From Folioceros fuciformis (Eukaryota): a stretch of 43,842 bases of DNA. Shown piece by piece: positions 104-30,825 of the stretch; within the stretch, counting starts at the first letter, position 1; each line of letters opens with the position of its first letter. Below the pieces are notes generated by a model. It saw only the letters and a list, made by a program, of their open reading frames with translations, ran no database searches and was not told the DNA's origin. Position numbers and translations under genes: made by a program. The stretch covers positions 1-43,842 of the forward strand of contig JBNGIO010004854.1 in NCBI GenBank assembly GCA_049999805.1, written 5' to 3'.

Positions 104-2690
104 CTAAACTTCCAAAAAATCGGTAGGCGACATGACTTGGAACGACTTCAACGCCTCTTTGCCATCAGCTCTTGCAAGCCAGACCACTCTATCTAAATCT
201 ATTGCATCCTCCTGTTTGTCGTCCTCCGAGTCGACTCCCCTGCTATCCATGGAATACGCATACCACCCTTCCTCGCCTCTGGTAAGTGGCTGCCTTAAAA
301 TCTGTTGCACCTGTTCCTCTAGCCCCTCATGCAGCCACAAAAAAATGAGCTTGACATGCTGAGCACCAACGCCAAATTCCCCTTTGACCTCCTCTACCTC
401 TTTCCAGCGGGAAGCGAATCTATTCCATAAATGCCCAAGTTGGAAAACGCCCCTCCGACACGCCAACCCGAAGATTTGGGACCGATATACCCTTGATCTG
501 AAATCCTGAACCCACGGCCTCGAGAATCCCTGCAAAGGAATCCCAAGAACATCATCCGCATGAGAGAAGTTACCCGGGATAATATATCATTTAACCTCCA
601 GATAACTGCTCCAGATGGACTTGAAAAGCGGGGAGCAATCTGCAGTATCAAGAAGCGGTTTGTCAGCCAGAATGTTGTCTATAGANNNNNNNNNNNNNNN
701 NNNNNNNNNNNNNNNNNNNNNNNNNNNNNNNNNNNNNNNNNNNNNNNNNNNNNNNNNNNNNNNNNNNNNNNNNNNNNNNNNNNNNGTGTTAGAAGACTCT
801 TCCAAGGATAGTACGCCGGATCTACTGCCCTGACAACCCATTGAGCATGCAAAACTTTCATCTTGGCTACCGGGTCCACCACCGCAAGACCCCCCAAACC
901 CCGCACCTGAATAATATGCTGCCAAGCCACCTTAGAGCAACCAGCCATATTATCCCCCGAACGCTTCCACAGGAAAGAGGTCAGCACCTCTGTCTTAGAA
1001 GGGGCCCACAAAAACAGATAATACCATAAGGAGGCGGTAAGGATATGATTAATCACCACCAGCCTACCTGCCCGGTTGAGTTCCAGCAACTGCGGACTAG
1101 CCGCTTTGCGAATGAATATGAGAAGCACATACTTCCTAATCTCCCCGTTCTCATCCTCCTCTTCGAAAGGAAGCCCCAAATACTTGTGTGTAGAACCCAG
1201 GGTCACTCGCCTAATGTGATTAATACACTGGGGATGCTCCCACTCCAAATGAAGACACATCATACGCGTCTTACCCCAATTCACCTTACAGCCCGACAAC
1301 TCCCCAAAGACCTTGACCTATTGGAGCAGCACTTTCAATGAAGCCTCCTCTGCTGAGGAAAAGAGGAGGGTATCATCTACGAACGCTGAGACCCTTAGCT
1401 GCATTCCATCTAGGTTTTGAATGCCCACCACTGCCGGGTCTTGCTTGACTGCTCTGAGAAAGAAGTTAGTGACAATAATAAATAAGAACGGGGCAAGGGG
1501 GCAACCCTGACGTACCGACCGAGAGATGCCAAAGCGCTCCGTAAAGGATCCATTAACATCCACCTTGGCTCCAGCATCTTTGCACAAGATGGCTATCCAT
1601 CTGCAGAAATTATTCCCGAACCTGAAACTACGAAGGCATCGCCATAGGAAATGCCACTCAACATAATCATAAGCCTTGTAAAAGTCAAGGGAAATGAAAA
1701 TGGCGGCTTGGTTTTGTACTTGAGTGTTGTACTTAGCTTCCCTAAGGAGTAGGAGGTTGTCCAGGATGCACCTATTTTGAATGAATCCTCGCTGCTCTTT
1801 CTCAATCCAATCATCAAGAAATGGAGTAATTCGGTTAGCCATTACCTTAGCAATCACCTTGTATGTGGTAGTAAGCAAGGTAATCGGGTGCCAGTTAGAG
1901 ATTGATAAACTAGTGCCTTGCTTAGGGAGGAGGGAGATAACCCCCATATTGAACCAGCTCCCCATGCTACCTTCCTCCCAAAACATACTGATGGCCTCCA
2001 TGAATAACAGCTGCATAAATTCCCAACTCCAAAGTAGGAACTCCGGAGCGATACCATCATGTCCCGGAGATTTATCCCTCGGCATCCCCTTCAGGGCCTA
2101 CAGCACCTCGTCAGCACTTATCGGCCTAACCAGAGCACTATGCTGGTCCTCGGACACTTTAGCCGACAGCGCACCGTAAGAAGAAGCCCAAAGTTGTTCC
2201 CACCTTGCCACCTTCCCAACACTGGAGAAAATGCCAACAAAGAAGAGGGTAATAAGAGTCTTTAGACCTGCAAGCGATTCTTGCACCACGCCACGCGTGT
2301 CTGGAAGGGCAGGAATGCGCGTCTTATGTTGGTTAGCGGCCACCTTATCAAAGAAGAATTTAGAGGGGCCATCCCCCTCCCTCACCCACTTAACTTTGGC
2401 CCTCTTAAACCAACCCCTAGCCCTGTCTTCTTCCAACTTGGCCAAGGCGCACTGTACCTCTATTTTCCAAGTCCCTTTCGCACTTGTGAAACCCGGCCCT
2501 CACCGCTCCTTTGTAGCCAACACAATTCCTCCCTCAAAAAACATTCTTGCAGGCGTTGTTCTCTTGCTCGTTGAACCCCTCGCCTCCTCAAATACATAGT
2601 AGCCTCAGTGTTAGCACACATCAATTTGATCGCCGCATTTCCTTCCCCCTGTTCACCTCCTTGCCAAATGCCTGACGGACGCGATCCTGG
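104..2690 (-). mobile_element. Degenerate non-LTR (L1/Tx1-type LINE) ORF2: post-endonuclease linker, reverse transcriptase and downstream region; continues towards or off the left edge
   Basis: Consecutive minus ORFs carry W..RAKVKW..EGD..SKFF, KSPGHDG, NWHPITLLTTTYKVIAKVMANR, QRGFIQNRCILDN, SLDFYKAYD, RSVRQGCPLAPFLF, FVDDT (FADD-like), KYLGLP and GLGGLAV; broken by stops, frameshifts and an N gap. Confidence 0.93.
686..785. other. Assembly gap (100 N)
   Basis: Run of N. Confidence 1.
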
Positions 2691-5987: not shown

Positions 5988-6849
5988 AGAGTGTTGAGAC
6001 GCACTAACCATTTTGGTAGTCTTGAGAGGTTGGTCAATTTTGGTAAGGGGTTTAGGGCACCTAGTGGTATCCAAGGGACACAACCCCTATTAGGTTAGAG
6101 ATAGGTTTAGGTCAGAGTTAGGGGCGGCTTAGCACAAAGAGAGATTGCTGGGCGGGTGACTAAGGCTAACCCTAGTAGACAGAGATGGAGGTTTGGGCCA
6201 AGGTAGTATAAGAGGCTAGATCTGTTATTGACGAGGGGGTCTACCGTGTGATTTCCCTTGACCTTGTGTGCAAACTCCCGGCCTAGAGACTGAGCCGGTT
6301 GAGATAGAACCAAGGGCTTGATTCCCCTTGCCACTAGGGGGACGTGGTGGATCCCAAGACTGCCGAGATCCATGTGGCCGGATCCGCAATGGCTGAATAT
6401 TTTGCATGCTGGCTGAGGTGAAGTGATAGGGCCTTGAGCCAGGAGGGCTATCTAGTCCTAGTTCCCACACCTGTGCTTGGAGATTGCAAGAAGCGAGGCT
6501 GTTGTGTCCTAAATTCCAAGGCTGAGCTGAATCAAAGTGAGGAAGTGTTGGAGTGAAGTGTGAGCTGCTGGAGTGCAGGAGTGTGAGCTGAAGTGAAGGG
6601 TGGATGACTGAAGTGGAGAAGTGACGGGCTGAAGTGGAGATCATGAAGGGCTGAAGGATTGAAGTGCTGGAGCGTGAGATTTGTGGATTGAGTTGAAGAT
6701 AGGCTAGGATTCTGACCCTTTTCCTGGAGAGCGGTCAGGCCTAGAGACCGGCTGATACGTAGAAGTGAGTGTAGGCAATTGTAGGTATCCTTAGCACTAG
6801 TTTACTGCCTTGGGAGCGAATCATAAGGCTGCAACGACAATAAGGGAAA

Positions 6850-7701
6850 GTGTGGCCCTTTGGTGGTTCTTGGGTACAAGAATCCACTCCACACAGAGGA
6901 AGAGGGCGTGGACGTCAAGGTTTTGGTAGAGGCAGAGGACAAGCGTCCAGGCCTGATCCCAACTCCAGTTCACAGCAGCTCGTGAAGAAACTTGGTGTGT
7001 GCACCTACTGCCACAAGCCAGGGCACAGGGCAAGAGAGTGCAGAATCAAGTAAAGAGATGATGCTTGAAAAGGAAAAGAACACGAAACAAATGTGACAAT
7101 GGCAACCACACCTGGTCTACTTGTGGCTTGTCTCTCCTCTATCACAAATAGTAAAAATCAATGGCTCTTAGATAGTGGGGCTTCTAACCATATGTGTTCT
7201 TCTAAAAAGTCTTTTCTGAACTACAGAGAGGCTCCAAGTGAGCATGCTGTTGTTCTTGGAGATAATTCTCACATTCCTATTAGAGGGATAGGAACTGTTG
7301 TCATTACTCTGCAAAATGGCAAAACTTAGGAGTTAGAAAACGTGTTGCATGTTCTAGCACTGAAGAAGAATCTCGTGAGCACTATGGCTTTAGGAAAGAC
7401 AGGCCTGTACAAAATTTTGTTTGAAGGTCTAGAGTGTGTTATAACGAGAGTAAATGCACCCACAGATGTCATTGCTAGATGCACCCTTTTATATGACCTG
7501 TATATACTTGATTTCGTCTCTTATGTTCCTCCACAGTCTGCACAATTAATGGAGAAAGCTGTTAGTAAGCCTGAACTAGTGTTTAAGTGGCACTATAGGT
7601 TGGGACATCCAAACATTCAAGCTATGAGACGTTTGCTCAGAGAAAAGATGGTCACAGGTTTCTTTGAGTCTGACTTACCAGATCTGGATCTCTGTGTTGC
7701 T
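6850..7701 (+). mobile_element. Ty1/Copia fragment A: gag zinc knuckle, protease, GAG-pre-integrase; cut off by an LTR insertion
   Basis: RG-rich tract, CTYCHKPGHRAREC, WLLDSGASNHM, KKNLVS, WHYRLGHPN...CVAC; internal stops. Confidence 0.92.
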
Positions 7702-8281
7702 TGTTGTGGAACGGAAAAGTTTGGTAATCGGTCTAGGAAAGTCTAACTTGGTTTCTTCTTATTCAGAGTAATTCGAAGGGAGGCAAGTGGAAGGTAGGTT
7801 TATGGGCAAGTACCCATAGTAGGTAGTGAGCAGCTAGTGAAGGTGTTTATGGAGTTTTTTTTAGTTCTACAGGCGATGTGATGGCACACAACCGGCAACG
7901 AGATTCCTATGCTCTACTGAGCATGATAACTCGCCATGAGAAGAGTGCAAAATGTGGTGGTTCATTTCTTTGTGTAGCCCCTCCTTATAGGAGAGATCGA
8001 CATATGAACCCTCTCCTACATGTAGGTGGTGGGCTATGCTTCTCTCACACTAGGCACCACCAACTTTAACTGCACACACCTACCAAGAGGCTAAGTCCTA
8101 CCAATAATTGCTAGGGCAGTGCGCGCGGATGAAGATGGTTAAACCGCCTAAACTGCTTAATTGTTTTGAATGTCTTAACTATATTTAATAACTGCTGAGG
8201 GTAATTATATAACCCTAAACTGAACCGTGCGCTAAACCTTTCTTACTCCGTTTTGTCGGCGCCGCCTTAGTAGTAACAACA
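7702..8281 (-). mobile_element. 3' LTR (580 bp) of minus-strand Copia element B
   Basis: Termini TGTTGT...ACAACA form a 6-bp inverted repeat; directly follows a PPT on the minus strand; interrupts element A at the CxxC of its integrase zinc motif. Confidence 0.88.
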
Positions 8282-8646: not shown

Positions 8647-10250
8647 CTATTCGGCTGCCTCGAGATAAGTCTCTTTCTTGAGTAGGCCGATACCTTGCAT
8701 GTGCTTAAGATGAAGTTGCTTTGTGAGTCCTTTCATCAAGAGGTCGGCTGTGTTCTCGGATGTGCTCACATACCTGAGCTTAACATGTTTGTTAGTCACC
8801 ACTTGTCGAATGAAGTGGTGCTGGATCTCCACATGCTTCGTTCTTGCATGCAGGATAGGGTTTAAGGTCATAGCGATTGCTGATTGATTGTCACACTGCA
8901 ACTCTGTTCCTGATCTTCGTGTATGTCGTGCAGGAACTGGTGGATCCAAAGTATTTCTTTTGCAGCAAGGGATGTGGCTGCGTACTCTGCCTCTGTTGGA
9001 TAGGCATACCGTCTGTATGTTCTTGCAAGCCCAGGAGACGGCGCTCATGTTTATCATCATATAGTATGCGGAGGTGGACTTGCGGGCGTCAAGGTCACCT
9101 GCCCAGTCGGCGTCTGAAAAAGAGGTCAATAGGCACTTCTGGGTACCTGAATCGCCTCTATATGCTATGCCCAATGATTTTTTTCCCTTCAGGTAACGTA
9201 GGATCCTCTTCACACAGGTCCAGTGCGCCATGTCAGGATTCGACAAGTACCTCGACGTCACGTTTACTGCTTGTGCGATATCTAGTCTCGTTTAGATAGA
9301 CAGGTAAAGCAGACTCCCTACAGCTTCACTGTAGGGCACATTTGCCATTTCTTCTGCCTGCTCGGGTGTTGTTGGACTGTTTAAGGCTGACACCTTTTGT
9401 CCTATGGCCATGGGAGTGGATACTGGCTTCGCATCTTGCAGGTTGAATCTAGTGAGGAGTTGCTCAACGTAGTGCTCCTGGTGTATGAAGAAGGAATGCT
9501 CATTTGTGTTCCTCTCGAACTGGACTCGTAGGGCATACCTTAGGGTGCCCATGTCAGCCACCTTATACTCGTTGGTGAGCAGGTTCTTAACATGCTGAAT
9601 CAGCTGTGGGTCAGTTCTGAAGATGAAATTATCATCCACGTACAAGGTAACAATAACGTACTTGTCTTTGTCCTTCCTTAGCACGTAGACACTTGAGTAA
9701 GCTGAGAGGGGTGTGAAGCCGCATTTCTTGAGGTATAGGTCAATTGTCTCATTCCAGACCTGCGCCAATTACTTGAGGCCGTAGAGTGATTTTCACAGCT
9801 TGCAGACTTTTCGATGGTCCTTGACAAATCCAGGCGGCTACAACATGTGTATCTCCTCGTGTAGGGTTCCGTACAGGAAAGTTGTTTTGATGTTGACTTG
9901 ATGGATGTCGAGTCTATGCTATGCAGCGAAGGCCAAGAGGATCCTTATAGATGTTGCCTTCACCACTGGACTGAAGAGCTTACTTTCTTCATAGTCGAAG
10001 CCTAGGATTTGTGTGAATCCACAGGCTACCATCCTTGCTTTGTGTCTTGAGACACTTCCGTCATGATTTAGCTTTCTTCGGAAGGTCCATTTCCAAGAGA
10101 TGGGCTTTCTGCCATGTGGTAAATCAGTAAGAATCCAAGTTTTATTGGAGATGAGTGAATCATACTCTGATTGCACTGCTGCCTTCCATTCAGGTATGCT
10201 GAGGGTTTCTTCAATTGTTGGGGGAACTCCCTACATCTCAATGGCTAAGT
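8647..10250 (-). mobile_element. Ty1/Copia element B reverse transcriptase and RNase H (pseudogenised)
   Basis: EWKAAVQSEYDSL, KARMVACGFTQ, KSLYGLK, LYVDDN, PYSEAVGSLLYL, FSDADWAGDLDARKST, CDNQSAI, HARTKHVEIQHHFIR, TADLLMKGL; several in-frame stops. Confidence 0.95.
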
Positions 10251-10529
10251 ATGCCATGTGCATGATGAGGTGTAGTTGATCCACTTGCGTCTAAGTGTCT
10301 GTAGGTGTAGGTTTTGCTGAAGGAGGAGTTCTGCCGATCAGCGTGTCTCCAGGTGTGTAAGGTAGATCCTTCCATTCTTCTATTGGTGGCCTGCTCCTTG
10401 AGGATCGCCTGAGGGTCTGTACATCCTGGGGAAGAGGCTGGGATGGAACTGAATGGGCTACAGGTTGGTAGGGAATTACCTCTAGTGCTTGCTACTTACC
10501 TATTCTGGTGCTAACATTTCAGACTTTAA

Positions 10530-10850
10530 AAGTCTTACAGAAGCAACCAAGGAGGTTGTGTGGACAGTAAGAGCATTGCGCAAGCTCGGCTTCGAACAGC
10601 AGCTCCCGATCACGCTATTCTGTGACAATCAGAGTGCGATAGCACTCACTATGAATCCCAGGTTTCACGCCCGCACCAAACATATCGAAATCCAGCATAG
10701 ATTCGTCCGAGAGATGGCCGCAGCAGGAATTATCCAGGTTGTCTATTGCCCAACTGAGAGAATGACAGCGGATATCTTGACCAAGGCCCTAGACGCGTAA
10801 AACACTATGAGCATGCAGCTGCGCTTGGCTTGAGATCCTCAGGGAAAAGC
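10530..10850 (+). mobile_element. Ty1/Copia element C, RNase H C-terminal fragment
   Basis: EATKEVVW, LFCDNQSAIAL, FHARTKHIEIQHRFVRE, MTADILTKAL. Confidence 0.92.
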
Positions 10851-11095: not shown

Positions 11096-11475
11096 GAGTG
11101 GGAGTGATAGGGTATTAATTACCCTTAGTTAGGTTCAGGTCTAGGTTAGCTAACCCTAACCGTTATAACCGTCATGTCTCTTTCACGGGACATGTACGTG
11201 TAAGTGTCAGTTGCAAGATGCACGGCGCACTACGCGCGACCGATGCTTTCTCTATCGATTCTAGCATTCTACTTATCAGCCCCTGCATTCTTAGCACTAG
11301 ATTAAGAGATTCTGGAAAAACTCTAAACTTCTAAGTAATAATGCACCTAGAAGTCACTAGAGAATCTCGTCGAGATGCCTCGTAGATGTTCCAATCGTCC
11401 TCAGCGGGCTATTGAGAATTTCTATAATCAAAGAGATAAGCGTCAGCCTTATAGTGAAAGTTCAGATACCTATCA
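11096..11475 (+). mobile_element. PPT (11096-11104) and 3' LTR (11105-11475) of element C
   Basis: GAGTGGGAG followed by TGATAGG...CCTATCA, a 7-bp terminal inverted repeat. Confidence 0.8.
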
Positions 11476-11504
11476 GGAAGTGGCAGCCTACACACTCCCC
11501 CTTC
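11476..11504 (-). mobile_element. PPT and first 19 bp of the LTR of another minus-strand LTR element, apparently interrupted by element C
   Basis: Minus strand reads GAAGGGGGAG-TGTGTAGGC..., the same PPT/TG architecture as at 8282. Confidence 0.55.
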
Positions 11505-11972
11505 GTCCTAGCCTACATTCTGAATTGCTCTTTGATTCTCAGTCTACTCCTAATCTTAACAGGAGTCAACGAAGAGCTGAACTCAGAAGAAACAACAAAA
11601 TACTACGAGAAAACCCACCTGAAAATCGATGAGACAATCCACTCTCAGAGATTGCAAGCTTACGCACTAAAATTGATGAGAGATTTGCTGTTCAAGAACT
11701 AGCTATAGCAGGACTTCACGCGAGAAGTTCATCATTTGAAGCTGCAATTTTACACCTAGTTCAGCGTGTTGAAAACCACATCCCTGCATTTACAGATTAC
11801 CTTGCTGACGTTGGGTGAGCAGTGATCTGTCTTGCTGCCTTTCAAGGATTGACTCTGAACACTTGGCCAGCAGTGTTTCAAGGCTTGGATTCTGTGTCTG
11901 CAAGATTGGGTGCTCCCCTAACAACAAGAGATCCACTGCTAGATCTCACTCCACAACGAGAGAGACAGGCAT

Positions 11973-12072
11973 NNNNNNNNNNNNNNNNNNNNNNNNNNNN
12001 NNNNNNNNNNNNNNNNNNNNNNNNNNNNNNNNNNNNNNNNNNNNNNNNNNNNNNNNNNNNNNNNNNNNNNNN
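11973..12072. other. Assembly gap (100 N)
   Basis: Run of N. Confidence 1.
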
Positions 12073-12346
12073 AAAGTAACGTTTCATATCATTTCTAGCA
12101 TGAATAGGTTTCTAACCTAATGAAGTGTTATGTGCTGTAACTTACCGGTTCGCTTCACAATTGTTCATGTCTAGTCATTTTTTGCTAGATTTAGGAAGTG
12201 AGGTTGACGAGTCTTCAGACACAAAGGCTGATTTTCTACAGTCACTTGCAGCACAGTTTCAAGTATTCATAGTGCCTGCATACCTGCAACAGCAGATGTC
12301 ACTACCTCCTCTGGTGGGACTAACACCCTCTATAGGAATTGTTAAC

Positions 12347-14561
12347 ATGGCTAATAATCCAACAACATCTTTTGGCTCTTCCTACTCAGGAGAGTTCAAA
12401 GAGAAGGACATGTTTGATGGTAAACCTGCCCGGTTTGAAAGCTGGAAAGCAAGAATGAAAGCAAACCTCAATGCCAGGGATGTATGGGAGTTCGTCGATG
12501 GGACAATTCCCAACCCTGCTTCCATTCCAGCCACGACACAGAATCAGCCTACATCAAACGATATTGCTAAGTGGAAGAAAGGGCAATAAGATAGCATTTG
12601 CCATCTTACTTTCAGGCCTGGATGAGACTACTGTCTCCGAAGTTGATTTCCTGGAATCAGCAGCAGCTGTCTTGACTCAACTTGTTGACACATACTAGGT
12701 GCAGAATGTTTGTACCTTTATCCACGTTAGGAGTGACTTTCACAGTCTGCGGATGAAGGAAGGGGATCCAGTTGGAGCCTATGTCACAAAGTTGAGGTAC
12801 TTGCGGGCATAGCTTGCCGCGCTTGGGGCCAAGACGACTGACGTGGAGATGGTAGCTCAACTGTTGACCGGCCTTCCTCCTTCCTATCAGACATTTATAT
12901 CAAGTTAGAACACAGCACTTCATGTTGCCTATCAAGCAGCTGCCAGTGGTCAACCAACTACATTGAACTTGAATGCTGTCATTAGAGCATTCATGCAAGA
13001 AGAGCAGAGTTGTCACAAGCCAGGTGGCTCTCGCCTTCGTGGTGAGAAGGTCCTTTTTGCAGCTGAGGGCAAAGGACCTTGGAAGGGGAAGGGTAAAAAG
13101 GGAAACTCACCTCAACACTCGACCTTCGCTCCAGTCACTACAAAAAAGCAAGGCAATTGCCACTAGTGTCAGACTCCAGGACACTAGGAAAGGGATTGTC
13201 GGAAAAAGAAAGCAAGTGAAGCCAAGAAGGACAGCACACCTGAGGCACATGTCACCTCAAAGGACAAATCCAATTTTCCGAATCACCAAAACCACAAAAG
13301 TAGCAGCTCAGTTGTGACATTGTGCTTAACTTCTTACAGAGGAACATCTTCCTCTTGGTTTGTTGATTCAGGTGCTACAGCGCATGTCTGCAACAACAGG
13401 CAGCTCTTTTCAACCTTCCACAGACAGAAATCTCCACAATCAGTGTACGTTGGGGACTCAAGAGGTGTGGAGGTAAAAGGCTGTGGTGTTGTGTTCATAC
13501 CTTTGTTTGGTGGTGCATCCTTACGTCTTGAAGATGTGTTGTACGTACCTGATATGAGCAAAAACTTGCTATCTATTAGGGTTGTGGCATAGAGTCAGCA
13601 GTATAGCGGACAGAAAGTGTTATATCTACAATCTCTTTGATCCTCATGACTACGTTGCTAAAGCCATCCTAGTCAATGATCTGTACCAGTTGGTCACAGT
13701 TTCTAAGCATCATGCTAGGGCACTAGTTGCTGCATCCTATGCACAAGCTAACCTCTGGCATGCGAGGTTAGGTCATGTCAACAAGTTTAAGCTAGATGTC
13801 ATGGCCAACTCAAGTCTGTATAGGGAAAAACTGCCCTCCTACTTCAAGCACCTAGAAGCCTGCAGCTCTTGTATTCTATCTAAGCAGAAAGAGCTGCCCT
13901 TTAAAAATAAAGCACCCAATCGTGCTAAGGAAGTGCTTGAACTTATCCATGCTGATATCGCTGGGAGGATCCAAGTCAAGTTGTTAGGAGGTGCAGAATA
14001 CTACCTAACATTGACAGATGATTTCACATGATATACATGGACATTTCCTATCAAGCAAAAAAGTGATGTATATGAACAAATAGCTTCCTGGATTCCCATG
14101 GTTCAGTGCCAAACAGGGTATTTGGTCAAGTGTTTTCAAACTGACAATGGAGGCGAGTTCACTGGCCACAGATTTGATGATCTCTTTCAGCAGTTTGGAA
14201 TCATCAGACAGCTGCCAGTGCGCTACACACAACAGCAAAACGAAGTCGTTGAGAGGAAGAATCAAACAATCATGGGGATGACCAGAAGCATGTTATCTTA
14301 CTCAGGACTGTCAAAGAGGTATTGGGCAGAAGCAGCAGTAACTGCTACTTACATTTTGAATAGAGTTGTGACCTCTGCCCTGCTAGGGAAAACACCCTAT
14401 GAAGCATTCTGGGGAAGGAAGCCAAGTTCGTTACACCTTAAGGTTTTTGGATCTCCTGCCTTTGCCTTCATACCAGAGGCCAAAAGACGAAAGTTAGACG
14501 ATAGAGCTAAGCGGCTGGGCTTTATTGGCTACTCTGAAGAGTCCAAGGCGTACAAACTTTA
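12347..14561 (+). mobile_element. Ty1/Copia element D gag-protease-integrase (pseudogenised)
   Basis: FESWKARMKANL..DVWEFVDG (UBN2 gag), degenerate CxxC..GH...C knuckle, WFVDSGATAHV, LWHARLGHVN, LELIHADIAG, TDNGGEF, QQNEVVERKN, WAEAAVTATYILNR, KLDDRA..GFIGYSEESKAYKLY. Confidence 0.95.
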
Positions 14562-14858
14562 TGAGGCAAGGAGGAGAGGAGAAAGAGAGGTCTCACAATG
14601 TCTCTCACAGCTCTATTGCAAAGGGAGCTCAAGAGGGTATTTATACCCTCTAGAAAAGCTCCCAAGGAAGCTTCACAAGAAGCTCACAGGAAGCTATGCA
14701 GGAAGCTTCCTAAAGATTAGCTTAAGCTAATCTAAACTAATGATACTTAATTAGACACTAATCTTAGACTAATTACATTAGTCTAGTTAAACTAATCACA
14801 TTAGTTTAATTAGACTAATCACATTAGTCTAAGCACATTGGGCTTTAATAACCCTACA
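14562..14858 (-). mobile_element. Truncated LTR inserted in element D
   Basis: Minus strand starts TGTAGGG, has AT-rich ACTAAT/ATTAGT repeats and TATAAATA followed by a CT-rich leader; no matching TSD found. Confidence 0.65.
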
Positions 14859-15240
14859 CAATGCTAGAGACTTATCTCCACTAGGGCCATTGCTCAAGGA
14901 CATGGTTCCTGCTGATGTTGCCTTTCATTATCCTCAGTCTGACGGAGAGTCACCAGATGACAATTTTCATGCAGCTGTGGATGAGCTTCTACAACCTGGC
15001 GCACAATCTGGTGCACAGCTGGTTGTACCACCAGTTGTCCCAGCTGATCTACCTAAATAGCCTCTTCACCAGAATCCTGTTCAACCTGAACAACACAATG
15101 AAGATGATCAGCATGTTGCTCTAGGACCTGCTGAACAGAACAACCTTGATGAACACAATGTTGATGCACATCTGTATGAGTTTGACTTGGATGCAGGTAC
15201 TCACATTGATGTTGGCTCCAGCGTTGCACCCTTTTTCAAC
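14859..15240 (+). mobile_element. Probable Copia integrase-RT linker remnant
   Basis: Nearly open acidic/Pro/Gln-rich frame (..HYPQSDGESPDDNFHAAVDELLQP..) in the position expected after the integrase of D. Confidence 0.45.
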
Positions 15241-15880
15241 CAAAACAAACCACTACCCCAAACTTTGGAGGTTCACACAAGTGTTGAAGAGGTCGCCGGG
15301 ACTTTGATGGCAATTGCTTGCTGACTGGCACTAAACTGCTCATAACTTGGTGGCAGTGAAGCGAGGAGTTGAATTGCTGCCCTGTCTTCAGGCACAAAAA
15401 CTCCACAAGATGCCAGCTTGGCTCTGGCTGCACAAAACCTCAAGACATGGCTCTCAACAGAATCTGTCTCCTTCATGCGGAGTGTCTAGAAATGTAAGGT
15501 TGCTGCAACTTTCGTCATTATATCCTTAGATTCATAAGTATCGCCTAACAATGTCCATGCTTCATTTGATGTACTCGTCAGCTTGATGTGAGGGATCATA
15601 TCTTGGGACACTGAAGACACAAGGATTGAGCGTGCCTTCCTGTCCTTCGACTGCCACTCCTTTGCTTGCTTTGCTGTCCAGGTGGGTACAGTCCCTCCTG
15701 GTGTTGCTGGCCCTGATGGTTGACCAACAATTCTCTGTGGATTGGTGCCGTCCACCACATCCATGAGTAACTTCTCTTCGAGAATACAGCGAAGCAAAAA
15801 CTCTAGTTGTCATAATTGGAAGGAGTCAAGCGATCCTTCTCCTGGAGTCGGTCAGAACCATCTGACCTTGTTCCAGCCAT
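15240..15880 (-). mobile_element. Ty1/Copia element E gag (UBN2), degenerate and truncated
   Basis: ATG at 15880 (MAGTRSDGSDRLQEKDRLTPSNYDN*), LLMDVVDG, WQSKDRKARSILVSSVS, EAWTLLGDTYE, LLASLPPSYEQF. Confidence 0.88.
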
Positions 15881-16461
15881 TACTGCTGGAAATCAAGGGA
15901 GTATTGTGGGACAGGAACATCAGACCCGAGCTGATGTCAAATCTCTCTAATTTCCTTGGCATGTCTCTTGACCTCTAGCTCTTGAGTAACGGATGTGAAT
16001 TTTCCTAACTCTCCAATTTTCTCTAGCCTATCAAGTCTGTCAATGGCGTTGTCTATCTTGCTGGACAGTTCAACCACCCTAGCATTCTGGCTATTGAAGG
16101 CAGCAATAAATAGATCGGCCTGAGCACAATGGGTAGGGGGTGACCTACATTGCTCCTCTTGAACAGAAGCTAGTGACAATTTTCCTGTCCTGTTGAAGGT
16201 ACTTGACACAGGTGGAGACTCAGGCTGATAGAACTCTAGAGGGAAGGAATCAATGAACTGTTGTAAGAAACAAACCCTCTCAATTTGCTTGACTTGTGGA
16301 ATATTCTGCTTGAAGTAGAGGCGCTCAAAAGCCTCCTGGAAATCCACGTCCCTCAGAGTAGCTTGAGTCCTCACCTTATCATGCTTGCCACTTAGGTTGT
16401 CCACAAATGAGTGCCTGCAAAATTCCTTGCGAGGCATCCTGCTGTCGGCCTCATCAGCCAC
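15880..16461 (-). pseudogene. Extra ORF between the PBS and gag of element E, coiled-coil-like, with one premature stop
   Basis: 174-codon ORF; reading through the TGA at 15937-15939, the frame ends at TAA 15882-15880, which overlaps the gag ATG. Confidence 0.55.
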
Positions 16462-16572
16462 CGACCAGGACCAATCTTTAAAAGAAACCGTGCTGCCACT
16501 TAATTATTTCCATTTGGAGGCAGAGGAAAAATTGGAGAGTCAGGAGCAATGAGCAGGGATGCGGATCATCCT

Positions 16573-16584
16573 GCTCTGATACCA
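16573..16584 (-). promoter_or_regulatory. Primer binding site complementary to tRNA-iMet
   Basis: Minus strand TGGTATCAGAGC directly after the LTR end ...TTTTCA. Confidence 0.95.
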
Positions 16585-16781
16585 TGAAAACATTCGTGGA
16601 TCACGAGATGTGCCAAGCTAACACATAAAAAGCATACATTGATAATGATGGAAAGACACAAATAGGAGTAACCCGTAAAAAACGGTTACAACGGTTCATA
16701 GCTGTTCTTAAATAACTAAACTAAATAACCTACTCGGTATAACGTAATGTACAGTATATGTTAAACCATAAAACTCTAACA
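16585..16781 (-). mobile_element. 5' LTR of element E (about 200 bp)
   Basis: Minus strand TGTTAGAG...TTTTCA adjoining the PBS; AT-rich; outer boundary inferred. Confidence 0.7.
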
Positions 16782-16944
16782 ACAACCATTCACAAGGGAA
16801 GCAACTTGCAGGGGTGCCCATGGAAGAATATGAGCCCTCCGCTAAGCACTTCGACCACTGCAACTCTAGCCGGTTTAACCGCTAACTAAGGCTACATAAA
16901 ACGAGCTCACAATAATGATAAATCAATCTTTCTTTTCCTTGCTA

Positions 16945-17430
16945 TAGGTTTCTAAAGTTAGTGGGACATTGTGATTCTGATTGGGCATGAGATGTTGATA
17001 GTCGAAAGTCTACAACTAGATACGTGTTTTTATTGAATGGAGGAGCTACTTCTTGGAATAGTAGGAGACAACATATTGTTGCTTTGTCTTCTACCGAAGT
17101 AGAGTACATGGCAATATGCTCTGCAGCCATGGAAGCAATATTGTTGCATGGTCTATTAGAAGAGTTGGGCTTCGAATAAAGTGACCCGATAACAATCTTC
17201 AATGACAATCAAGGTTGCGTCTTCTTAACCAAGAATACTATATTTCATGTAAAGACAAAACACATTGAGGTAAAGCATCACTTCATTAGGGGGAAGCTGA
17301 GATCAAAGGAAATACAAGTGGAGTATCTTCCAATAGAAGGCACGTTGACAGATATCTTGATTAAAGGCTTGAGTTTAGATAAGCATGCTAGGTTTAACAA
17401 GATGCTTGGTTTAACAAGATGCTTGGTTTA
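16945..17430 (+). mobile_element. Ty1/Copia element F RNase H remnant (AT-rich, older)
   Basis: Translates to DVDSRKSTTRYVF..GGATSWNSRRQ..VALSSTEVEY, DNQG, FHVKTKHIEVKHHFIR, TDILIKGL; 17-bp duplication at 17391-17430. Confidence 0.9.
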
Positions 17431-17452
17431 AGGGAATAGTTTTTGAAGTGTT

Positions 17453-17736
17453 GAGTGGGAGTATTAGAAATGAATAGTTTAGGATAACAAATCAGATAGT
17501 GGTAAAAAACTTTATTTGTAGTTCAAGTAAAATTATTACTATAGAATAGATAGTATTTAAGATAGTAACATGGTTTTAAGGGGTTATATATAAGGGGTTA
17601 TGGCCGCACTCTATAGTGTAGTGGTAAATAGATAAGCATAGGTGTTTGAGATGATGAGCTCTCACATGTTTTCGGCCGTCCCATGTCTTGTAAAATATTT
17701 TCTCTCAATACAGGCTATATCTGTATGTTTCTAACA
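17453..17736 (+). mobile_element. PPT (17453-17461) and 3' LTR (17462-17736) of element F
   Basis: GAGTGGGAG then TATTAGAAA...TTTCTAACA, a 9-bp inverted repeat with one G>A change; internal TATATAA. Confidence 0.82.
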
Positions 17737-18333: not shown

Positions 18334-20997
<2,664 letters not shown>

Positions 20998-27335: not shown

Positions 27336-30300
27336 TTAGGGGATGTCCTGGTCGGAAGAGCTTGCAAAGCCTGGCTCCGAGCTAACAGGGATCCCGACAC
27401 TCGAATTACTGCCTGTGCTCTCTGGAGGTTCAACTTTGTCTTTCTTCTGCCTCCTACGCTGGTCCAGCCCCTGATGCCTCGACATTGTGGAGACCATGAG
27501 GAGGTAAGCACTGACCACCAGCGTCCAGACAGCCACCTTCCAGTAGCTGACATGCACAAGGATGCTGATATGCTCCAGGAACCTAGATCGTGCCTCGAAG
27601 GAGGAGTTGTTTTGGTACTTGCCACCCATTTCAAGCAAGGGATCAGGATCGGCGGGTGGAGACCATGTTCTCTTGCTACTTGCCACAGGTGTATCACGAT
27701 GCTCTTCGTACGAGCTCTCTTTTTCCTGTTCAGTTTCTCCATCGAGATCTTCTTGCTCTTCCTCGTTAGTGCGGTCTTGGTCTCCCCCACCAGAATCAGA
27801 AGATAGATCTCCATGTTCTGCTGCTTCTATCTGGTCTATAGTGGGTTTTTCCTCAGCATCCTGGTCGTCTTGGTCCTCCGGACATCCTCTGTTCTTGTGG
27901 TGCAAGTATAGGGCGTCGTTGAGAGTATTTACACATTCGATACATATGCTGTCCCTTCGGAATTCATCCTCATTTATTCTGTTCAAAGTAGAGACGTCGG
28001 GAGGTTCAGGGAAGAACTGCCAGCAGATGTTTGTCATGTCCTTCGTCCGCCACTCAACCTTGTCAAATGACCAGTTGCCAATGTTCCACTCCAACCCGTA
28101 GTGGAGCACATGGGGTTCTACATCAGGACTAGGAACGTAGCCTGGATATAGCATGATGTCTTGGTTGATGATGTGCTTCAGTTTCATCTGCAAGCGAGAA
28201 ACAGAAGATCATGCAACCAAACAAAAGGAAGGACACCTGATGCAGCTGACACCGTGTTGTGCGTAAATGCTCCTCACCTCTGCAGCACCGAAGACATAAC
28301 CGTACATTTCACTGATCCAACCTTCCCCATAAACGTCCCCAGTAAAGTTTGTGCTCCAGTGTGCCCCGTCGGCACGAACCTCCTCGGTCTTGTGAAGCCA
28401 GAGTGGGGCGAATTTCCGGAGATCATCAATGTGCATCACGATGACCCCACCCACTTTCTGGCATGCCTTTGGATATCTTGTATGAAGTATCGCCAGTTCG
28501 TTGTCACATCCGATGAGATAACTGCGACCACCAGCATGAGCAAGCAAGACCACGAGCATGAATTGCACTCCACCGTCAATGCAAGTGACCACTGCAGGGA
28601 TAAATAGAGCTGAGAGATCTTACTCATATGGAGCTGAGACAGGGTGGCCAGGTGCGGCACCCAATTCCCATGGTGTTATCGGCCTACGGAGAATCATGTC
28701 AGCATCGAGAATCACAATGTACTCAGCATCCGTGTCGAAGTGATTAAGCCAATGAACGACAGCAGCAGGCTTATTGATCGCAGGATACCTGCAGCAGGAA
28801 GAGAACAGAGTTAAGGCACGAAGGGTGGAGGTGTTGCATACAGGAGGCAAGGAGATCAATGCAAAGCCTACACCTAAAGATTACCAGTCGCCGGTTAGTG
28901 GGTGCTTGCTCATGGACGGAACAACATGTGTGGTCGCGAGGTCCATACCCTTGTACGTCTTGAGATCCTCCTCCGTGCAGCTAAGCAACCGTGTGAGTGG
29001 TCCAGGTTGCCTACTCAGAGTAAAGCTGTGCACCATTCCTACCGTCTGCCAGTCAAAGTACGTTGAGCACTCGACAGAAAACAACGTGTGCATCTTGGGA
29101 CGAGGAACAGTGGCAGCGGGTTTCTTGTCATGTTTCATATCCGACTTAGCACCATTCGTCTCATTGTTCTGAGTTGTGGATGGAAGCCGCCGAACTTCTG
29201 CTGCAAGTCGGCCCTCACCGTCACCCGCATCCTTCATGCCTCCAGCTTGGGCCAACTGGAGATCTCGTACCTCGGTTGCAAACACTGAACTTTTCTGTAA
29301 CAGTCCCTCTGCCAGAAACGTCAGATAGGCAGACTTTTTGGGTCTGGGACAACCACGACGTCTGTGTGCAAGGATCAATCCTTCGTTGATGGTGTTGACA
29401 CACTCAACGCTGAGAAGCAAAGCCCGGCGTTTTCTGACATCTGACTCCATGGCAGTCACCTGCGCAAGTTGTTGCAACCAAAGTCATCGAGAGATTGTTT
29501 GACACTTGTGTTGACACATCCAATAAGCAAACTGCAACACACTCTCACCTGCTCAGGGAAGGGCGGAGGAGAAAATAAACGGTTACAGTCGTAGACAATG
29601 TCGTCTTCATGGTGTTCTAGTTTGCCGAAATGCCACTTCCCCACGTCAAACCTCAAGCCATAGTGGAGCAGTTGAGGTTCCACTCCATCCGTAGGAGTGT
29701 ACCCAGGATATATCATCAACGTATCATTGACCTTGTGACGAAGCCCAACCTGGTGACATGGTAGGTTAGAACCAGCATTCCCACATATCTGACACTGGTA
29801 CGTTAGCCTGCAATTGCACAAAGAAAGTCCAACATTAACAGCTTTGCAAACTCAGCTCAAGCAATGGAACAAATCAGAAGAACACGCAGCATACCTCTGC
29901 AGCGCCAAAGGAGTAGCCATACATTTCACTGATCCACCCTTTTTCGTATATGTCTCCAGTAATGTTCGTTCGCCAATGAACTTTGTCAACACGAACCTCT
30001 TGTGTCTTGGACAGCCAAAGTGGGGCCATTTTCTTCAGATCAGAAACATGCATCATGATAAACCCACCCACTTTGTCACACAATTCTGGATGCTTGGTAT
30101 GCAACGTCGCCAGTTCATTGTCACAGCCTATGAGGTACCTGCGTCATCACACACCCTTCGTGAGCATCAACACTACTGTTGCACAAATTTGCCAGCTTGA
30201 ACACACTTCCAAGTTGGTCAAGTCTTGACACACCCATAAGATGCTGATGCAGGTCTACCAATCTCAGCACCAACTTCCCAGGGAAGTATGGGCGCCCTTA

Positions 30301-30825
30301 CAACCATATCGGCATCCAGTATAAGCACCCAATCCACATTTTCTGCATCTGGGCTGTGATTCAACCAGTGAACAACCCCTGCTGGCTTGTTGATTGCTGG
30401 ATACCTGTAGAGAGGCCAAAACCCACAAATCGCTCAAAACCCTGTGCGTGGACACCAGCCATTTCAGGAGAAGAGCCAAGATGCAGGATATCCCACCAAT
30501 CTTTTGTGACAGGATCCAGACTCATGGACGGGACAACAACCGTCGGTGCCAGATCCATGCCCATGTAGGTTACCAGCTCGTCGTAGGTACAGCTGAGCAG
30601 GCGGGTGACGGGCCCCGGGTGCCCACTCTTCCTCAAACTGTGCATCAGACCCACAGTCTGCCAGTCGAAGTACATCTGGCACTCGGTGGAGAAGAGAGTG
30701 TGCATTCTCCATGGGCTGTTTGGTGAGGGAACGAAGGGGGGTTCATGACTCCCCTGGCACAGAGAGCTGATTACAAGACAAACGACGAGACATCCGAGAC
30801 CGGCTGCTCGCATGTGCTTTGACAT
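27336..30825 (-). CDS. SERGT1: Peptidyl serine alpha-galactosyltransferase (SERGT1/SGT1, GT96) with two tandem catalytic-type domains, a signal peptide and a C-terminal TM
   Basis: Two copies of MHTLFS.EC..YFDWQTVG..HS, GP.TRLLSCT, GMDLA, DWYPAINKP, ILDADM, YLIGCDN, GWISEMYGY.FGAAE and LHYGL; hydrophobic N-terminus; C-terminal TM followed by a basic tail. Confidence 0.93.

Follow-up and report, generated by a model that had tools for sequence, protein, structure and literature searches.

Does a Ty1/copia retrotransposon family of Folioceros fuciformis carry a gene of its own ahead of gag and, if it does, how is gag translated behind it? The question is raised by the 43,842 nucleotides of contig JBNGIO010004854.1 (assembly GCA_049999805.1), hereafter the window, which have 49% G+C, contain two runs of 100 N, and are eukaryotic and plant-like in character, with many retrotransposon fragments and spliced-looking host genes. 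The feature running from 16781 to about 15277 on the minus strand is best explained as the 5' part of a Ty1/copia copy that has decayed and been truncated; it consists of a short long terminal repeat (LTR), the primer binding site (PBS), a leader and the first two thirds of gag. The leader contains a long open reading frame (ORF), here called ORF0, which is on the same strand as gag and lies between the PBS and the gag ATG, the position that defines a forward 5' extra ORF (eORF-5'F). A first-pass annotation of the sequence proposed that ORF0 is coupled to gag through a TAATG stop-start overlap and encodes an accessory protein that would control gag-pol translation. We favour the reading in which ORF0 is genuine and belongs to the family as a forward extra ORF of the leader, a proposal over which the evidence is evenly poised; the overlap itself is a lesion of the copy in the window.

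Extra ORFs in plant LTR retrotransposons are common, evolve fast and are functionally unexplained. If the favoured reading is true, the family would be evidence that Copia elements, too, acquire such ORFs, and that a shorter, coding-like one slips under length cut-offs; with its ORF abutting gag, it would also be a compact case for studying gag translation downstream of a long frame. As the window holds a dead fragment, and its TAATG is a lesion of that copy, the value of the locus is that of a lead and not of a demonstrated mechanism.

A coding-like frame in the leader of a Copia element

The assignment to Copia in the first-pass annotation was borne out by gag and by the PBS. The gag start codon is the ATG at 15880-15878 on the minus strand, and the frame behind it matches Retrotran_gag_2 (PF14223) with E values of 1.2e-13 (15809-15489) and 9.7e-10 (15485-15276), both matches being above the curated cut-off. 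The PBS, TGGTATCAGAGC, is an exact site of the tRNA-iMet type. We take this 12-mer to be the usual Copia tRNA-iMet site and the complement of the tRNA end; the count of PBS-like sites over the whole window tolerated two mismatches and so says little. In the survey of Neumann 2019 (PMC6317226), tRNA-Met primes most Copia groups. The distance from the PBS to the gag ATG, put at about 690 bp by the first-pass annotation, measures 692 nt.

ORF0 exceeds the length expected by chance and its composition is coding-like. The long leader ORF that had been described is present, but the length of 174 codons given for it is matched only by counting from a GTG at 16461; ORF0 has 166 codons from its first ATG and 188 from stop to stop. 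A stop-free run of at least 188 codons was obtained in 2 of 5000 dinucleotide-preserving shuffles of the 692-nt leader. For the codon-usage score, the training set was 14 long stop-free frames from the window, partly host-gene-like and partly pieces of Copia gag/pol; Pfam supports some of them. The score was +0.109 in the ORF0 frame, with stops ignored, and negative in the other five frames, and none of 2000 shuffles reached the ORF0 value (z 3.95). This value falls within the range of the Pfam-supported ORFs of the window, which were themselves in the training set, and the base composition of ORF0 by codon position is similar to that of the training ORFs. ORF0 stays under the 250-codon cut-off of the Neumann 2019 survey (PMC6317226) with its 166 codons in the window, and would do so in other copies with about 182 codons counted from the ATG, provided that they match the window in the remainder of the frame.

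Other copies and the junction with gag

Contigs from other copies in the same organism were aligned on 15200-17000 at 80% likeness or more. Runs X1, X2 and X3 come from one sample of one study; run X4 comes from a second sample and study with the same species label, and covers gag pieces and a high-copy repeat only. The differences between contigs and window considered here are the best-supported 40 of 341. In run X3 G>A changes are in strong excess, so its single differences were left unused, and contig depth was not taken as copy number. All listed contigs differ from the window: likeness is 97-98% for the best and about 89% and 80% for others, and contigs of about 97%, 89% and 80% identity all span the C-terminal part of ORF0 and the junction with gag.

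Two features of the window copy, the TGA at 15939-15937 that ends ORF0 and a base missing shortly behind it, are private to that copy. It had been predicted that other copies would have CGA in place of this TGA, and this holds in all covering contigs, which carry G on the plus strand at 15939 and so have an arginine codon. The supporting depth is 74.1 of 74.1 in X1 (3 contigs), 55.6 of 55.6 in X2 (3) and 6.39 of 8.6 in X3 (1). Reading through the TGA in the window copy, with X at the stop, gives HQLGSDVPVPQYSLDFQQ, 18 further codons and then TAA at 15882-15880, whose last A is the first base of the gag ATG; to this extent the letters are as the first-pass annotation described them.

The overlap does not extend to the family. 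At 15898-15902 the window copy is one base shorter than all aligned copies: an extra base stands behind 15898 in all three X1 contigs and all three X2 contigs, and behind 15901 in the sole X3 contig. The window letters at 15898-15878 on the minus strand are CCTTGATTTCCAGCAGTAATG, and when an unknown base is inserted at 15898-15902 the ORF0 frame reads ...QYXP* FPAV M. The extra base places the TAA of TAATG outside the ORF0 frame, and since every junction-spanning contig has it, the overlap is explained as a one-base loss in the decayed window copy and fails as a family trait. The stop that closes the ORF0 frame in the other copies is the TGA at 15895-15893; the gag ATG follows 12 nt behind it, and ORF0 and gag share one frame there. 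Taking this TGA as the family stop assumes that its three letters carry no unlisted contig difference; no fully supported change falls there in any run among the best-supported 40 of 341 differences. The outcomes that the first-pass annotation had itself set against its proposal, an overlap not conserved among copies or an ORF fused in frame to gag, were therefore found in part: the overlap is not conserved and the frame is that of gag, but a stop still separates the two.

The lesions of the window copy are spread over both frames. ORF0 has one stop and the missing base just after it, and gag has one stop (TAG at 15805-15803) and one frame break near 15793, behind which the one covering contig is one base longer than the window copy. 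The degree of decay is thus much the same in ORF0 and in gag, which is what insertion with both frames open would predict.

The leader and possible routes to gag

Ten ATGs precede the gag ATG in the leader, and three short upstream ORFs (uORFs) lie before the start of ORF0. With so many upstream ATGs, plain scanning to gag is unlikely. The ORF0 start at 16437 has A at -3, and the gag ATG is in a good context, with G at -3 and +4, and stands about 20 residues before the SNY..W motif. This is presumably the usual spacing in Copia gag.

An 18-nt inverted repeat (Table 1) encloses the start and most of ORF0, and its arms pair in the minimum-energy fold. An arm of this length was reached by 3 of 300 shuffles, and the leader fold as a whole has a z score of -2.78 against 20 shuffles only. 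A 9-codon uORF (ATG at 16569) stops at 16542-16540, inside the 5' arm at 16545-16528, and the ATGs at 15962 and 15920 sit between the 3' arm and gag. A search of 15000-17500 against Rfam gave only a sub-threshold match to a snoRNA elsewhere.

In the favoured reading ORF0 would be translated from the genomic RNA and would end, in the family state, at the UGA 12 nt before the gag AUG and in the gag frame. Ribosomes might then get to the gag AUG by reinitiating across the short spacer, through leaky scanning, or by bypassing a structured leader. Reinitiation after a long ORF usually needs special RNA elements (PMC10275272), either a termination upstream ribosomal binding site (TURBS) ahead of the junction or, as in SART1, a hairpin about 34 nt downstream (PMC10275272, PMC5902531).

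Is ORF0 a gene?

The results that weigh against a genuine extra ORF concern its product and its divergence between copies. The product is predicted to be a small protein without relatives, mostly unstructured and with one long C-terminal helix. The AlphaFold2 single-sequence model has a single helix, at residues 102-144, and the heptad a and d positions are 60% hydrophobic in the best register, a modest pattern; the coiled-coil-like C-terminus of the first-pass annotation is visible in both, but it is weak, with a mean predicted local distance difference test score (pLDDT) of only 44.9 for the model. HMM searches, which that annotation had suggested, and searches of structure-linked sequences assigned no family: Pfam gave nothing below E 0.01, the Protein Data Bank (PDB) sequences nothing below E 0.1, and in the ESM Atlas recognition of ORF0 was 1477, compared with the 2300 reached by 91 of 100 proteins of known families, with a best score of 0.78. 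The most meaningful search for relatives, phmmer against 1.84 billion representatives, found none that was credible, and its sole match, a tandem-repeat protein matched in 7 stretches, was taken as spurious. Two word-based protein searches, at near and at longer lengths, also found no relatives, but they carry little weight because a control search with the gag piece was likewise empty at 1e-5. Pattern matches to ORF0 numbered 126 in the JGI metagenome contigs and 2 in IMG/VR, with none confirmed in either, and tblastn of ORF0 against the window returned the self match only.

Divergence is uneven along ORF0. The contig of about 80% identity has 54 differences in 259 nt over 15810-16068, where its single gap is the shared extra base, and 78 in 416 nt of gag (15310-15725), which puts the conservation of the C-terminal quarter of ORF0, and of the junction, roughly level with that of gag. 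Over 16069-16295 and 16346-16563 the same contig drops below the 80% threshold, and most of ORF0 therefore diverges faster than gag; its upstream length, 521 nt, is close to that of the window. Within ORF0, the contig of about 89% identity is one base longer than the window behind 16229, and no gap elsewhere in its aligned stretch compensates for this. Openness of the frame across the family can be read over the C-terminal part, which the contigs (3 per run) cover: they have a sense codon at 15939, and one has the extra base at 16229. The visible substitutions fall equally on the three codon positions (3 first, 3 second and 3 third). This spread was rejected as a test of selection: most differences from a dead copy probably record neutral decay of that copy, and they are uninformative on selection.

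These observations would also suit a non-coding leader, in which ORF0 is fortuitous or a relic, the 5' leader is structured for packaging, priming or bypass, and gag is reached by shunting or internal entry. In favour of this, the frame has no relatives in the searches, folds with low confidence, is poorly recognised by the ESM Atlas, outpaces gag in divergence between subfamilies over most of its length, and is frameshifted in one copy. The RNA offers support too, through the ten ATGs that make plain scanning unlikely regardless, the fold and inverted repeat that few shuffles equalled, and the general plan of plant pararetrovirus shunt leaders, which is a short uORF followed by a large stem-loop (PMC5902531). 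Even so, the shunt layout fits poorly, as the uORF stops within the 5' arm and two ATGs intervene before gag; and a fortuitous frame sits badly with a 188-codon run so rare in shuffled leaders, with coding-like codon use in the ORF0 frame only, and with a sole in-frame stop that is private to a decayed copy. We consider a non-coding leader somewhat unlikely. An N-terminal extension of Gag is a different matter, and we rate it as unlikely. Here ORF0 and gag would be one frame in the active lineage, the UGA would be read through at a low rate or would have arisen later, and a long ORF0-Gag protein would be made beside Gag. It is in its favour that the extra base puts ORF0 into the gag frame in all aligned copies, with one stop between them, although chance alone would do so one time in three, and Neumann 2019 dropped extra ORFs that stood alone in certain elements but belonged to the polyprotein in others, so that such cases do occur (PMC6317226). 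What speaks against it is that the TGA at 15895-15893 stands in the window, where the listed differences leave it intact, and that the gag ATG is well placed and in a good context of its own. In addition, this TGA is followed by TTT, which is not known as a read-through context.

The proposal of the first-pass annotation, a family-wide TAATG overlap that couples ORF0 to gag by termination-reinitiation, is very improbable. The overlap is present in the window copy, and the annotation was right that such overlaps serve this purpose elsewhere, UAAUG being documented in SART1, caliciviruses, influenza B and Cryphonectria hypovirus 1 (CHV1) (PMC10275272, PMC5902531, PMC2699510). In the junction contigs, however (X1 3, X2 3, X3 1), the TAA is out of the ORF0 frame, and in the window copy itself the TGA at 15939 ends ORF0 57 nt before the ATG. 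A more ambitious form of the favoured reading is distinctly doubtful. Here a Copia lineage would have gained an accessory gene ahead of gag, in the gag frame and parted from gag by one UGA, by convergence with the Tekay and Ogre 5' ORFs. Its RNA could yield three products, namely the ORF0 protein, Gag, and an ORF0-Gag fusion made by occasional read-through. Were it true, the junction would be a dosage device like that of retroviral gag/pol, moved to the front of gag.

Comparison with known elements

ORF0 is probably a family-level 5' extra ORF of a kind known from Gypsy elements but atypical for Copia, to which its host belongs. The first-pass annotation had said this with Ogre-type Gypsy elements in mind, and Additional file 5 of Neumann 2019 agrees. 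The counts of that survey come from 582 Copia and 3372 Gypsy elements and take in extra ORFs from 250 codons upward (PMC6317226). Forward 5' extra ORFs are listed for 33% of Tekay, 23% of TatII and 21% of Ogre elements, and eORF-5'F is marked '-' for nearly all Copia lineages; the rows for Bianca and Ikeros hold two small figures that could not be assigned to columns (PMC6317226, Additional file 5). No description of a Copia 5' ORF abutting gag was found in the literature searched, subscription journals being mostly outside its reach.

The closest parallels are the Gypsy 5' extra ORFs of Tekay (Retrosat2, RIRE3, RIRE8 and group 2 of the sunflower Tekay elements), TatII and Ogre. Like ORF0, these are sense ORFs between PBS and gag, and their products have no conserved domain, evolve fast and show no similarity across hosts. 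The 5' additional ORF (aORF) proteins of Tekay are reported to be for the most part disordered but to have a long C-terminal helix, and those of different species are not alike in sequence (PMC11728184); in disorder and helix they resemble the low-pLDDT model predicted for ORF0. Retrosat2 ORF0 is reported to evolve faster than ORF1 (Ka 0.257 vs 0.078) and to have no relatives outside grasses (PMC3485330). The orphan status of ORF0 in the window fits these reports on Retrosat2 and Tekay. In contrast to the Gypsy examples, the host of ORF0 is a Copia element, and ORF0 is shorter, abuts gag in the same frame at a distance of 12 nt, and has no similarity to anything searched.

What the UAAUG systems named above share with the window copy is a long upstream frame ending in a TAA that has a base in common with the next ATG; in the window copy this frame has to be read through its TGA. 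They differ from this Copia family in that conservation of the stop-start overlap among relatives, a mark of UAAUG/AUGA termination-reinitiation, was not found here: no other aligned copy keeps it. In the available text of PMC5902531, LTR elements translate Gag-Pol by frameshifting, and termination-reinitiation is named for non-LTR elements only. The 3' env-like ORFs of SIRE-type Copia elements (SIRE1, ToRTL1) are, like ORF0, extra ORFs of Copia with fast-evolving products (PMC4093653, PMC6317226), but they follow pol, are much longer and occur in 74% of SIRE elements, whereas ORF0 precedes gag. The shunt leaders of the pararetroviruses cauliflower mosaic virus (CaMV) and rice tungro bacilliform virus (RTBV) are alike in their length, in their many AUGs and in a long-range stem around most of the leader. 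They are unlike it in that here the short uORF stops within the stem arm and not a few bases before it, and AUGs lie between the stem and gag. The resemblance is loose, and the structure proposed here rests on one sequence.

The element and its surroundings

The short LTR was delimited on its outer side where contigs of a high-copy repeat (16779-16871), with loose ends at 16779 and 16871, part from the window. No second LTR copy, nor a direct repeat able to be one, was found in the window. The two LTRs and the protease-integrase-reverse transcriptase-RNase H (PROT-INT-RT-RH) order of pol expected of a Copia element are not seen in this copy, of which the window has the 5' fragment; this concerns the copy and not the family. 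Gag is cut off at about 15277; from there on the contigs, with loose ends, belong to a very abundant repeat (15228-15277). The missing second LTR, the stop and frame break in gag, and the end at about 15277 together mark a dead 5' fragment rather than an entire element.

The segments at 15228-15277 and 16779-16871, which flank the Copia fragment and at whose edges contigs diverge, are probably pieces of very abundant repeats that bound it. Their summed contig depth in X1 is about 81,000 and 2,400, respectively, compared with 30-150 nearby.

Table 1. Features of the Copia fragment with ORF0 and of the neighbouring part of the window.
Feature	Coordinates	Strand	Basis or remark
Putative short 5' LTR, about 195 bp, TG...CA	16587..16781	-	CA end immediately before PBS; boundaries inferred
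Primer binding site TGGTATCAGAGC, tRNA-iMet type	16573..16584	-	0 mismatches
Inverted repeat, 5' arm, 18 nt	16528..16545	-	94% complementary, long-range
ORF0 frame, stop to stop, 188 codons	15940..16503	-	reading of sequence
ORF0, 166 codons from first ATG (16437) plus TGA	15937..16437	-	reading of sequence
Inverted repeat, 3' arm, in C-terminal part of ORF0	16003..16020	-	pairs with 16528-16545
TGA private to window copy	15937..15939	-	arginine codon in all covering contigs
Site where window copy is one base shorter than all aligned copies	15898..15902	-	contig alignment
TGA closing the ORF0 frame in other copies	15893..15895	-	12 nt before gag ATG, same frame as gag
TAATG: TAA (15882-15880) sharing A with gag ATG (15880-15878)	15878..15882	-	in ORF0 frame in window copy only
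gag fragment, broken	15276..15880	-	Pfam PF14223 on 15809-15489 and 15485-15276; cut at about 15277
Non-LTR-type reverse transcriptase fragment	1321-2097	-	PF00078 RVT_1, E 4e-32
Copia fragment: gag knuckle, protease, pre-integrase	6844-7743	+	
Copia fragment: reverse transcriptase and RNase H	8650-10495	-	
Copia fragment: RNase H end	10486-10797	+	
Copia fragment: gag to integrase	12116-15060	+	
Copia fragment: another RNase H end	16991-17428	+	
Sodium:solute symporter family gene, exons	18337-20354	-	PF00474; adjoins transposon nest

At least four more Copia fragments lie within about 11 kb and form a nest of truncated elements, with Pfam matches to PF22936, PF13976, PF07727 and PF25597. A long sense frame is likewise present in the leader of a second, unrelated Copia fragment, on the plus strand. 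It lies at 11351-11815, starts MPRR... and counts 93 + 61 codons, interrupted by one TGA at 11630-11632. An N-filled assembly gap follows at 11973-12072, and gag runs from about 12347. Kinship between ORF0 and this second leader frame (11375-11815) was considered and rejected, as the local alignment score of 32 was reached by 311 of 1000 shuffles.

The symporter gene next to the nest resembles, as we take it, a urea transporter of the DUR3 type. Further along the window, two pairs of direct repeats, 28276-28526 with 29893-30143 and 28909-29093 with 30521-30705, are 70-73% identical, lie 1.6 kb apart and fall in long minus-strand ORFs, which suggests a tandem duplication of gene exons.

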